Made by a program: the position numbers and the translations under genes
Source of the DNA: Candidatus Nanohalobium sp.
Lineage (GTDB): Archaea > Nanohalarchaeota > Nanosalinia > Nanosalinales > Nanosalinaceae
Length of the DNA stretch: 27,839 nt
Reading direction: 5' to 3'
NCBI GenBank assembly: GCA_042217555.1
Contig: JBDGSL010000022.1
Location: 1 to 27,839 of the forward strand
Part shown: piece by piece, positions 9,272-25,805 of the stretch
Layout: every line of letters starts with the position of its first letter
Position numbering within the stretch: position 1 is the stretch's first letter
The notes under the pieces: model-generated
What the model was told of the DNA's origin: nothing
What the model saw: only the letters and a program-made list of their open reading frames with translations
Databases searched by the model: none

Positions 9272-9775
9272 TTACTCGAAGCTGAGTTGGTAGTAGGTGT
9301 CTGTGATTGTCTTGATGATGTCTTCGAGCTCCTCTACGGACATGTTGATCTTTCCTTCGTACTCTTCGTCGACTACTACCTTCTTGTGTTCTCCTTCAGG
9401 TGAGAAGACGGTGTTGACGGATTCTATCTCCGCAGGGCTCAATAGTCCTTTGATTACTTCTCTGTCGCTGTCGCTTTTCTCTACAACTCTGATGCTTTTG
9501 TCGATCTCCTCTGCGACTTTCTTGACAATCTCTCCGCTTCTTCCCACGACCTTGGCTCCGTCTCCCTCTGCTGTTACTATCACTACTACGTTTTCAGTGT
9601 CGTAAATGTTCAGGATTTCACTGTCTCTCAGCGAGCCGTACTCCTCACTGAGTTCCTTGAGTTTTCTTGATATCTTGATTTCAAGCTCGTTTATCTCTCC
9701 TTTTTCTTTTTTCTCCTCGCAGTTGCTGCAGAGGACGTCGCTCTTAAGACATACGTTACATATTGGCGCCTTCAT
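9272..9775 (-). CDS. NusA-like KH-domain protein with N-terminal Zn finger
   Basis: MKAPICNVCLKSDVLCSNC zinc motif, KH GxxG loop (VVGRSGEIVK) and IRVVE. Confidence 0.85.
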   Translation of the reverse strand: MKAPICNVCLKSDVLCSNCEEKKEKGEINELEIKISRKLKELSEEYGSLRDSEILNIYDTENVVVIVTAEGDGAKVVGRSGEIVKKVAEEIDKSIRVVEKSDSDREVIKGLLSPAEIESVNTVFSPEGEHKKVVVDEEYEGKINMSVEELEDIIKTITDTYYQLSFE

Positions 9776-10385: not shown

Positions 10386-10886
10386 GTCCCTTCTGGAGAG
10401 AAAAAAGGTTTTCCGGGCGTTCTACAGGCTTCCAGTAAAGGGACTTTGAGAGGTATTCCCGGGAAAAAAGGGGGGGGGAAGGGGAGTGTTCTGATTTTTT
10501 CTCCGGGAAACCACTTCTGTAGTCCACTGGAAAACCTACTTGCCCGTCCATTCTCTCCAGATGGGACCGTTGAAATATCTGTTTTTAAGGATTTTGGAGG
10601 AGTCCCGGCGGAACACAAAAGGGGGGGAGGGGAGTTTTTTGTCTTCGCCCGGACTCCTCCTAACATGACGACGAAAGCCGGAGACTTTCTGGAGTCGAAG
10701 ACTTCTCAGTCTTCTGTGCCGAGAAACCTGTCAAGGTTTCGGCCCAGGAAAATCTCCGATTTTCGTACTTTTCAGGCCCTTGCAGGACCTCTTTGAAGCC
10801 TAAGGCTTCCATTGGTGGAAAATCCTTTCCGGATTTTCTGTTAAGCAGGAGACCTCCGATCTTCAGTTTTTTCGAAATTTGGAGGC
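10386..10886 (-). ncRNA. Candidate structured RNA or long ftsZ 3' trailer (alternatively a replication-origin-like region)
   Basis: Non-coding and densely palindromic. Two long stems with homologous polypurine/polypyrimidine loops (10386-10567, 10596-10660) are followed by at least 7 short hairpins, one with a GAGA tetraloop on the minus strand. Confidence 0.5.
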
Positions 10887-10894
10887 TTTCTAGT

Positions 10895-11962
10895 TTACTT
10901 CATGACTTCAAGTCCGAGGTCGTTGACGTCTCCTTCTACCTGGGTTTCTTCTGATTCGTCCAGGTCTCCGAGGACGTAAGGGCTCTCGACTCCTGTGATG
11001 ATGGAGATGACCTGCAGTTTGCCCTGAAGTTCTTCCTTCACTCGTGCACCCCAGATTGTCTGTGCCTGGCTGTCAAGCTTTTTCTTGACGTGCTGGCCGA
11101 CCTCGTTGATCTCGTTCAGGGTCAGGTCGTTGCCTCCTGCTACGTGAAGCAGTGCTCCGTTTGCACCGTCGAAGTTGACGTCGAGCAAGGGGTTGGAGAG
11201 TGCTTCGTGGATCGCTTCTTGGCCCTTGTTGTTCGTGTCTGACTCTCCGTATCCTACTACTGCGACTCCTCCATCGTTCATGATGGCCTGTACATCGGCG
11301 TAGTCCAGGTTGACGAGCGAAGGTTTGCTGATTGTCTCCGTGATTCCTTTGATCATCGTGGTGATCAGTTCGTCTGCGACTCCGAACGCCTGGTCGAGTG
11401 GCATGTCGCCTGCGATGTCAAGTAGTTTGTCGTTTTCGATTACGATTGCCGTGTCGACGTGCTGCCTGAGCTGGTAGAGTCCGTCCTCTGCCTTGGACAT
11501 TCTTGCGCCTTCGATCTCGAAAGGCATTGTCACTGTTCCGATTACGATGCAGTCCTCTTTCTTTGCGATCTCGGCCAGTACAGGTGAAACACCTGTGCCT
11601 GTACCTCCTCCGAGTCCTGCCGTCAGGAATACCATGTCGGCGTCCTTGAACAGGTTACGCAGTTCCGCTCTGTTCTCTTCTGCTGCACGTGCACCTTTCT
11701 CCGGTTCTCCACCGGCTCCAAGCCCACGGGTAAGATCTTTACCCACCAGTATCTTCCTGTCGGCCGATGACATCTCTAGGTGCTGCTTGTCGGTGTTGAT
11801 CGCGACTGTTTCAGCTCCCTCCACATCCTTGTTCTGGATACGGGTAACCTGGTTGTTTCCAGCACCTCCAGCACCAACCACCAGGATCTTGGCATCTTTC
11901 ACATCATCAAGGTTTTCCGAGGTTTTGCCGTCGTCTTCTGCGTTGTCAATTATAGATTCCAT
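10895..11962 (-). CDS. ftsZ: Cell division protein FtsZ
   Basis: GAGGAGNN, GLGAGG.PE.G, tubulin signature GGGTGTG, T7 loop VNLDYADV. Confidence 0.99.
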   Translation of the reverse strand: MESIIDNAEDDGKTSENLDDVKDAKILVVGAGGAGNNQVTRIQNKDVEGAETVAINTDKQHLEMSSADRKILVGKDLTRGLGAGGEPEKGARAAEENRAELRNLFKDADMVFLTAGLGGGTGTGVSPVLAEIAKKEDCIVIGTVTMPFEIEGARMSKAEDGLYQLRQHVDTAIVIENDKLLDIAGDMPLDQAFGVADELITTMIKGITETISKPSLVNLDYADVQAIMNDGGVAVVGYGESDTNNKGQEAIHEALSNPLLDVNFDGANGALLHVAGGNDLTLNEINEVGQHVKKKLDSQAQTIWGARVKEELQGKLQVISIITGVESPYVLGDLDESEETQVEGDVNDLGLEVMK

Positions 11963-12032
11963 TGTAGTACCAGCCTGCGATATAGCATAACCTTTTTAAG
12001 TGCAGAGACCTAACTCTACTTATAGAAAGACT

Positions 12033-12205
12033 GAGTCTTGCCCAAGACTCGATACATTCGATACTTGCCTAAATACTGACTCGAACTTTGCCCAAAGTTC
12101 GAACGAATCAAACTGTTTACTCGCAAGTCCCAATCGTTTCAACTCGTGCCCGCGAGTCGAAACACGTATTCAGGTCGTCCCGCCCAAAGGACGAACAAAT
12201 CTTGC
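12033..12205 (-). ncRNA. Candidate sRNA made of five hairpins with (G/A)GGC loops
   Basis: Hairpins at 12033-12050, 12061-12076, 12081-12102, 12136-12163 and 12175-12194 have different stems and the same loop. Several pairs are G-U only on the minus strand. TTTATAAA at about 12230-12237. Confidence 0.5.
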
Positions 12206-12381
12206 TTATACTAACATTCTCAAGACTCCTTTATAAATCTTCTGTCGTTTCCGCTGTTTCACATCTCAACCTGTGGAACCGTTTCTAACAGTTCACAGAT
12301 ACATTTATCGAACTACTTAGAAGCTGGCAACTTCAAGGAAAGGTCCAGGTTCTAAAAACATTTAGCTCCAACATGAATAAC

Positions 12382-12660
12382 ATGGTAGACGCCGAACAAG
12401 TGGAAGAAGTCGCGGAAAACGCAAGGATAAACATAGACAGGGAAGAAGCCGAGAACTTCTCCGAAGAGTTCGAGGAGATACTTGAAAAATTCAACCAACT
12501 CGACCAGATTGACACAGAAGACGTAGAACCGGCCTTCCACCCGGTAGACATAGAACCGGAAACCAGGGAAGACGAAAAAGAGAAGACACTGCAGGAAGAA
12601 GACGTCTTCCGAAACACGGAAAACAGAGAAAACGGCTTCTTTAAAGGCCCAAGCGCATGA
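12382..12660 (+). CDS. gatC: Asp-tRNA(Asn)/Glu-tRNA(Gln) amidotransferase subunit C
   Basis: VAENARINI...ILEKFNQLDQIDTEDVEP...REDE...GFFKGP. Start could be 12373 or 12382. Confidence 0.9.
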   Translation: MVDAEQVEEVAENARINIDREEAENFSEEFEEILEKFNQLDQIDTEDVEPAFHPVDIEPETREDEKEKTLQEEDVFRNTENRENGFFKGPSA

Positions 12661-25610: not shown

Positions 25611-25805
25611 GCGGGGGTAGCCAAGTGGTCAAAGGCGCAGGGTTTAGGAACCTTCAGTTTCCAGACGGAAACAAGGACCGAGAAGACGAAAATCCACCAA
25701 TGGATTTTCTCAAAGAAGATTCCGAAGGCAAACTTCGGATCTCTGATCTTCAATTAAAATACCCTGTCGGTTAGCCGTTCGCAGGTTCAAATCCTGTCCC
25801 CCGCA
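25611..25805 (+). tRNA. tRNA-Leu(UAG) with a 112-nt intron at 37/38 (intron 25649-25760)
   Basis: Acceptor GCGGGGG/CCCCCGC+A, anticodon stem CAGGG/CCCTG with loop TT-TAG-G|A, long variable arm CGGTTAGCCG, T arm GCAGG-TTCAAAT-CCTGT. BHB with TTTA/TAAA helix and GGA/ATA bulges. Confidence 0.95.

Follow-up and report, generated by a model that had tools for sequence, protein, structure and literature searches.

What are the repeated hairpins in front of the division gene ftsZ, and at which level could they act on this gene? We analyzed a stretch of 27,839 nucleotides (the window), which corresponds to contig C15 in a genome of 1.31 Mb and 88 contigs whose encoded proteins are very acidic. In the window, ftsZ (10895-11962, minus strand) encodes a protein of 355 aa that contains the Tubulin and FtsZ_C domains and matches TIGR00065. 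It is divergent from gatC (12373-12660, plus strand), and a 410-bp spacer lies between the two genes. The genome encodes a second FtsZ on contig C58. Since the window FtsZ scores below this paralog when compared with 'FtsZ homolog 1' of M. jannaschii (347 versus 416 bits), it is most likely the FtsZ2-type paralog. The set used for comparison was a phylum of 70 small genomes, which comprises one order with five families. Judging from the acidic proteins and from this phylum, the lineage is probably nanohaloarchaeal and of the DPANN type. To our knowledge, no mechanism has been established for the timing of division in reduced-genome, host-dependent archaea.

The original prediction had described five inverted repeats with differing stems and a conserved loop in the spacer, and each of them was found at the predicted coordinates. 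When read on the minus strand, which is the sense strand of ftsZ, they form an array at 12033-12194 of five hairpins, four strong and one degenerate, whose loops are of the (U)UGGGC type. The units are as follows.

12175-12194, minus strand: hairpin H1, UCGUCC(U)-UUGGGC-(G)GGACGA; the inverted repeat in plus-strand letters is TCGTCC-CGCCCAAA-GGACGA
12136-12163, minus strand: hairpin H2, GUUUCGACUCG-CGGGCA-CGAGUUGAAAC, with sequence conservation in the core stem ACUCG/CGAGU; the inverted repeat in plus-strand letters is GTTTCAACTCGT-GCCC-GCGAGTCGAAAC
12128-12133, minus strand: extra copy of the motif, UUGGGA, between H2 and H3; this sixth copy was absent from the original prediction
12081-12102, minus strand: hairpin H3, UCGAACUUU-GGGC-AAAGUUCGA, or UUGGGCAA with the U-A pairs closed; the inverted repeat in plus-strand letters is TCGAACTTT-GCCC-AAAGTTCGA
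12061-12076, minus strand: degenerate unit, GUAUUU-AGGC-AAGUAU; the inverted repeat in plus-strand letters is ATACTT-GCCT-AAATAC
12033-12050, minus strand: hairpin H5, GAGUCUU-GGGC-AAGACUC; the inverted repeat in plus-strand letters is GAGTCTT-GCCC-AAGACTC

The A-C mismatches in the second and fourth hairpins of the plus strand (12061-12076 and 12136-12163) become G.U pairs on the minus strand, as had been proposed. The degenerate unit at 12061-12076 is weak, having six pairs, two of which are G.U on the minus strand, and the loop AGGC; close relatives carry UGGGCA at its position. The array is beyond chance. Among 3945 GGGC sites in the genome, 19 are enclosed by a stem of at least 7 pairs, and four of these 19 are located in the array; other tetramers form 2.8-7.6 such hairpins per 1000 sites. 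Moreover, the array is the only cluster of at least three such hairpins in the 1.3 Mb genome. The region 11963-12240 folded better than 200 of 200 shuffled sequences on both strands (z-scores: minus strand, -4.2; plus strand, -4.8). Since both strands outfold the shuffles, folding energy alone does not choose the strand.

We compared the regions upstream of orthologous ftsZ from 61 genomes, which represent all five families of the 70-genome phylum. The conservation of loop and structure in these regions was confirmed: at least two hairpins with the motif loop were present in 59 of the 61 regions, and of the remaining two, counted in the same way, one had a single hairpin and the other had no motif hairpin. 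A distal TATA box was located at the expected distance in 55 of the 61 regions, which are referred to as leaders hereafter. The ftsZ-sense strand of the 55 leaders contains 215 copies of the motif UGGG[CA], and the antisense strand contains none. The density of the motif is 17.4 per kb in the leaders versus 1.13 per kb in the genome of the window, and 63% of the copies in the leaders are held by a stem of at least 6 pairs, compared with 1.5% genome-wide. The loops of 130 distinct hairpins included TTGGGC (36), TTTGGGCG (28), and TGGGCA (20). Most lineages use UUGGGC; some genera have GGUGGGAC or UUGGGA, the GGGA variants being present in a few genera only, and one family has UUUGGCG. The stem of H1 differs by genus and the loop is kept, as seen in UCGUCC/GGACGA, UCACGC/GCGUGA, UUCGUG/CACGAA, and UUCGC/GCGAA.

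Covariation was evaluated on a MAFFT alignment of 22 leaders (A1) that had not been selected for pairing, and RNAalifold recovered both H1 and H2 from it. In H1, 86% of the cells were paired versus 67% in shuffles, with 0 of 500 shuffles reaching as high a value, and the cells changed on both sides numbered 29 versus 11 in shuffles. The core stem pairs of H2 (122-125/134-137) were unchanged in 21-22 of the 22 sequences. The hairpins of another alignment (A2) had been picked for pairing, and its pair count was not used as evidence. A conserved loop on covarying stems is thus repeated within one leader, and the variable stems and conserved loop of the original prediction are borne out as a conserved, strand-specific structure of the RNA type. 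The upstream neighbor is gatC in 27 of 30 loci, and other genes occupy this position in some families. Since the upstream neighbor changes between families, the array travels with ftsZ, not with gatC.

The strand was assessed with 55 distinct hairpins in which Watson-Crick pairs at offsets 2-5 set the register. On the sense strand the loop-closing position was pairable in all 55 hairpins, with 28 G.U or U.G and 0 A.C combinations, whereas 28 of the 55 closing positions would be mismatches on the opposite strand. Mismatches within the stems had no strand bias (33 G.U versus 41 A.C). As these internal mismatches are uninformative, the strand call rests on the closing pair, the orientation of the promoters, and the depletion of U-runs described below.

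The TATA box and the TATA-like element that had been claimed at 12230-12237 and 11993-11999, respectively, are both present and are conserved in relatives. Together with neighboring elements they are arranged in the spacer as follows.

12250-12300, minus strand: candidate upstream transcription-factor sites, (G/A)TGAAC(A/T)GT-like repeats ahead of the distal TATA
12230-12243, minus strand: distal promoter P1, in which a purine-rich, BRE-like AGAAGA stands before TTTATAAA (12230-12237)
12203-12207, minus strand: predicted start of the P1 transcript, where the nearly invariant TA of 'TAAG' falls
12014-12029, minus strand: conserved palindrome that follows the array and precedes the proximal TATA; its consensus is TTCTA-NNN-TAGAA
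11993-11999, minus strand: P2, a proximal TATA-like element whose consensus is TTTAAAAAGGTTAGG; in the window family its distance to the ATG is 37-45 nt
11971-11977, minus strand: Shine-Dalgarno-like AGGCUGG, which is AGGCUGAU in relatives and GAGGUGA or GGAGGA in other families

The TTTATAAA box is invariant in the 22 sequences of A1 and has purine-rich bases on its gatC side. In the genome of the window, TATA octamers are most frequent at 30-34 nt upstream of the ATG of long ORFs; the distal TATA is not followed by an ORF start at this usual distance. With the usual 30-34 nt spacing, the transcript is expected to start near 12203-12207, which is 10-15 nt before H1. Ahead of the distal TATA, the candidate sites appear in many relatives as a tandem GTGAACAGT-N2-GTGAACAGT. 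Direct repeats of (G/A)TGAACAGT about 11 nt apart were also observed 20-60 nt upstream of the distal TATA in the window and in L006, L015-L017, and L036-L038; such repeats are probably a transcription-factor site. The palindrome at 12014-12029 may be bound by a transcription factor or may form a last small hairpin; since it is conserved in sequence, it offers no covariation to decide between the two.

The core TTAAAAA of P2 is invariant in A1, and P2 resembles a proximal promoter, transcripts from which would have a leader of 4-12 nt. Because distal and proximal promoter-like elements coexist, two ftsZ isoforms are likely. A stem enclosing the proximal TATA (72% paired versus 64% in shuffles) was too weak to claim, and so was an alternative stem near it (68% versus 63%). 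The Shine-Dalgarno-like word is located 8-16 nt before the AUG and fits the 3' end of 16S rRNA, GGAUCACCUCC, of a genome of the same genus.

Oligo-U is the intrinsic stop signal of transcription in archaea. Runs of at least 4 T were present in 15 of the 55 leaders versus 37 ± 3.2 in shuffles, runs of at least 5 T in 4 of 55 versus 13.8 ± 3.1, and runs of at least 6 T in 0 of 55 versus 4.1, and the leader of the window has no U-run from the array to ftsZ. Since U-runs are depleted up to the ATG of ftsZ and oligo-U is the stop signal, read-through into ftsZ is the simplest reading. The depletion may also stem from structural reasons that come with a hairpin-rich sequence.

To examine how specific the array is to this locus, a covariance model of one hairpin unit with 8 pairs and the loop UUGGGC (R1) was built from 70 hairpins. 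Since these hairpins were chosen for pairing, R1 matches its own locus by construction and only its absence elsewhere is informative. With E<=1 and strict filters, R1 gave 84 matches in 36 of the 70 genomes; all 84 are located 110-380 nt upstream of an FtsZ2-type ftsZ on its sense strand, and none was found at other loci of the 70 genomes. A regulon search in the 70 genomes revealed no second site of the hairpin-presented motif, and an array is missing from the gene of the other FtsZ paralog, whose spacer is short. Outside long ORFs, the genome of the window contains just one further hairpin of similar type, a lone perfect one, ACACUUUU-GGGC-AAAAGUGU, at C10:16-35 on the minus strand; it is located at the very end of the contig, where its context is cut off. 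The sole exact match to the 18-mer of H2, considered as a viral copy, was in coding-looking sequence of a high-GC phage contig and was rejected as unrelated. An rRNA partner was also sought: GCCCA does not occur in the 16S rRNA of a genome of the same genus, and GCCCAA of 23S rRNA pairs with its own neighboring UUGGGC; neither observation points to a partner. On this comparative evidence, the array is a predicted structured RNA element that is undescribed, phylum-wide, and locus-specific; no published description was found in the literature searched, including the accessible parts of PMC10443357 and PMC11001535.

The architecture invites comparison with known RNA systems. The original prediction had likened the array to CsrB/RsmZ of bacteria, which it resembles in that hairpins with unrelated stems carry one short G-rich loop motif. 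Membership in this class did not hold up: the motif is UUGGGC in the array and A(N)GGA, not UUGGGC, in CsrB/RsmZ, CsrA (PF02599) scored above the cut-off in 0 of 70 genomes, with one sub-threshold match that contains stops, and no Rfam family matched the array. Unlike CsrB/RsmZ, the array is archaeal, is tied to the position directly before one gene, and is not separated from this gene by a terminator; it probably acts in cis. Iron-responsive elements also form arrays, such as the five elements in the transferrin-receptor mRNA, and they act in cis, with protein binding setting translation or stability. The resemblance lies in repeated UTR hairpins with a common loop and variable stems, which in the case of the iron-responsive elements are read by one RNA-binding protein. 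The array differs in being archaeal, in its loop sequence, in having loops of 4-8 nt without the C-bulge, and in its location in the 5' leader of a division gene. By analogy, a loop motif shared by repeated hairpins suggests multivalent binding of one factor. In a search of the window against Rfam 15, the sole match was a tRNA at 25611-25805; for 11900-12450 the best hit was SmY, with E=8.2 and 11.4 bits compared with a gathering score of 39. The tRNA match (RF00005, 43.8 bits) spans 195 nt, and an intron is probable.

In other archaea, the position upstream of ftsZ2 is occupied by cdrS, a small ORF that is located directly upstream of ftsZ2 and co-transcribed with it, according to the accessible parts of PMC7439475 and PMC12126565. 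Co-occurrence of cdrS and ftsZ2 is stated for all archaeal clades except DPANN, and DPANN are reported to be without this companion of ftsZ2 (PMC7439475, accessible part). The array likewise is located directly upstream of an FtsZ2-type gene, has its own predicted promoter, and would be read through into ftsZ. Unlike cdrS, it contains no ORF, so that the slot would be filled by a non-coding structured RNA. From this analogy we infer that the array may replace the function of CdrS. A decayed cdrS was considered and, within the reach of an HMM search, rejected, as 29 RHH_1 matches were obtained in the genome at E<=10 and none of them was on contig C15. A coding reading was also rejected: the motif appears in different frames (LG, WA) within one open stretch and its spacing varies. 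Stop-free stretches in the leaders have a median of 52 aa. Another archaeal leader structure is the k-turn bound by L7Ae, which mediates translational autoregulation (PMC6298567, accessible part). That case shares with the array a structured archaeal 5' leader, which is protein-bound in the L7Ae mRNA; as far as the available text goes, the mRNA of the regulator itself carries just one k-turn site, whereas the array has a multi-copy loop motif, no k-turn features, and a division gene downstream.

Our preferred reading, to which we give an even chance, is that ftsZ2 has a 5' leader of about 245 nt, whose structured part is the array, and that the array provides multivalent docking for a protein. 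The leader would run from the conserved distal promoter, with a start near 12207, to the AUG at 11962, and the RNA would fold into three to six independent hairpins whose stems are free to vary. Each tip would present U(U/G)GGG(C/A), or UUGGCG in one family, and one RNA-binding factor with sequence specificity, most probably a protein, would dock at several of these tips. By occupying them cooperatively, it would set the translation or the stability of the long ftsZ2 mRNA isoform, and a second isoform, made from the proximal promoter, would have almost no leader and escape control by the array. Transcription of the region, binding of a protein, and an effect on FtsZ2 output are what we infer from the conserved patterns described above. 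The array is a phylum-wide, locus-specific non-coding structure in the slot that is held by cdrS elsewhere, and it offers a testable handle on division control, as a regulator can be sought with the loop motif as bait and reporters can carry mutated hairpins. Very few cis-regulatory RNAs of archaea are clearly supported by comparative data; the array would add to them and would be the first described one of repeated-loop, multi-hairpin design.

Several other explanations have to be weighed against protein docking on a leader. The original prediction had named either a sponge RNA of about 180 nt or an ftsZ leader; the leader is favored by the depletion of U-runs, and nothing tested speaks for a trans-acting sponge. 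It is unlikely, in our estimate, that the distal promoter produces an independent small RNA that ends or is processed before the proximal promoter and titrates an RNA-binding protein as a decoy in trans, working like CsrB/RsmZ without being one. The array has its own invariant distal TATA, its single loop motif in several copies on variable stems is the architecture of a sponge, and the array is separated from ftsZ by a conserved TATA-like element, which has a palindrome upstream and is located near the usual TATA-to-ATG spacing. This proximal element and the palindrome could be the main ftsZ promoter, in which case the array would be a separate upstream RNA. However, no U-run terminator separates the array from ftsZ, where U-runs are depleted, and the 70 genomes hold no competing target site with the motif presented on a hairpin. 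Linkage to ftsZ is strict over five families though the upstream neighbor changes, and CsrA, the protein to be titrated in the bacterial systems, is absent. An element acting at the DNA level, either as sites of a DNA-binding protein or as a cruciform insulator between the divergent genes, has very little probability. The location between divergent genes, along with other sites that are likely bound by transcription factors, would suit it, as would the internal stem mismatches, which show no excess of G.U. Nevertheless, the half-sites vary and the asymmetric center is conserved, which is the opposite of a dimeric DNA site, the closing pairs include 28 G.U and 0 A.C, and the linkage follows ftsZ, not gatC. 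We consider it just as improbable that about four GGG tracts form an RNA G-quadruplex in a potassium-rich cytoplasm and compete with the hairpins as a switch. The leaders contain a mean of 3.9 UGGG[CA] tracts (215 in 55), and a potassium-rich cytoplasm would be expected from the acidic proteins, but a quadruplex needs neither the conserved flanking U, U, and C nor the stems, some leaders have 2-3 tracts only, and the UUGGCG of one family (L061) contains only two G.

A partner of the array within the same mRNA was suggested by the original prediction, in which the GGG loops could pair with C-rich loops 3' of ftsZ. The C-rich loops proved to be real, conserved, and locus-specific, whereas their complementarity to the 5' loops is limited to GGG:CCC. 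The element is located as follows.

10420-10670, minus strand: 3' companion element, two hairpins with large loops ACACUCCCCU(C/U)CCCCCC, followed by U-runs

Hairpins with C-rich loops were found 3' of FtsZ2-type ftsZ in 29 of 30 loci and also in families f2-f5. The 13-mer CTCCCCT[TC]CCCCC occurs twice in the genome of the window, both times in the 3' element. CTCCCYTCCCCC was matched 45 times across the phylum; 37 of these matches are located within about 400 nt downstream of FtsZ2-type ftsZ on the same strand, and the reversed-pattern control gave 14 matches. Since the stems covary and the length of the C-runs changes in steps that are not multiples of three, the element is non-coding, and since the first U-runs after ftsZ are inside it, it is probably in the 3' UTR. 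No extended complementarity to the 5' loops was seen in the 3' flanks, where CCCAA was present in 12 of 36, which is about chance for 400 nt, and GCCCAA in 1 of 36; variants of the 5' loops are not mirrored in the C-runs. In haloarchaea, functional interaction of the 5' and 3' UTRs is reported to be needed for translational control (PMC2636863, accessible part). The two cases are alike in having conserved elements at both ends of an mRNA in a halophilic archaeon, and, to the extent that this source is accessible, no relation in sequence or structure between them is known.

We regard it as quite unlikely that the GGG tips contact these C-run loops, directly or via a bridging factor, and thereby join the ends of the ftsZ2 mRNA. 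The recurrence of C-rich loops downstream of ftsZ in nearly all loci and in families f2-f5, the confinement of the 13-mer to the 3' element, the excess of downstream CTCCCYTCCCCC matches over the control matches, the probable position of the element in the 3' UTR with its U-runs, and the haloarchaeal precedent (PMC2636863, accessible part) would all accord with such contacts. They are countered by complementarity that stops at three G-C pairs, with longer matches at about the chance level or in a single flank, and by the loop variants GGUGGGAC and UUGGCG, which have no matching changes in the C-runs. In addition, there is conservation of the U, U, and C that flank GGG in UUGGGC, none of which could pair with a C-run, and the G runs never exceed the length needed. 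A broader proposal, which we also hold to be unlikely, is that the ftsZ2 mRNA of this halophilic, DPANN-type phylum is bracketed by two RNA modules that occur nowhere else in the genome, a 5' GGG array and 3' C-run loops, and that these communicate and form an RNA-based division switch in place of the CdrS module. Multivalent GGG:CCC loop-loop contacts, stabilized by molar salt, or a bridging protein would then close the ftsZ2 mRNA and gate the synthesis of FtsZ2.

Additional features were observed around the 3' element. It starts with AUGUUAGGAGGAG, and the same AUGUUAG heptamer is present after the distal TATA of the 5' leader. About seven small hairpins, such as GAAAAUCCGGAAAGGAUUUUC, GAAGCCUUAGGCUUC, and GAAGACUGAGAAGUCUUC, directly follow the stop codon of ftsZ at 10700-10890 on the minus strand, and they are found in the closest relatives only (L002; partly L003 and L007). 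In the window family, the C-run element is followed by a gene for a 168-aa protein without a Pfam match and then by that for a NusA-like KH protein (9272-9775), and in L065-L067 (families f3 and f4) the gene after the C-run element encodes the translation factor aIF5A, as judged from its translated start.
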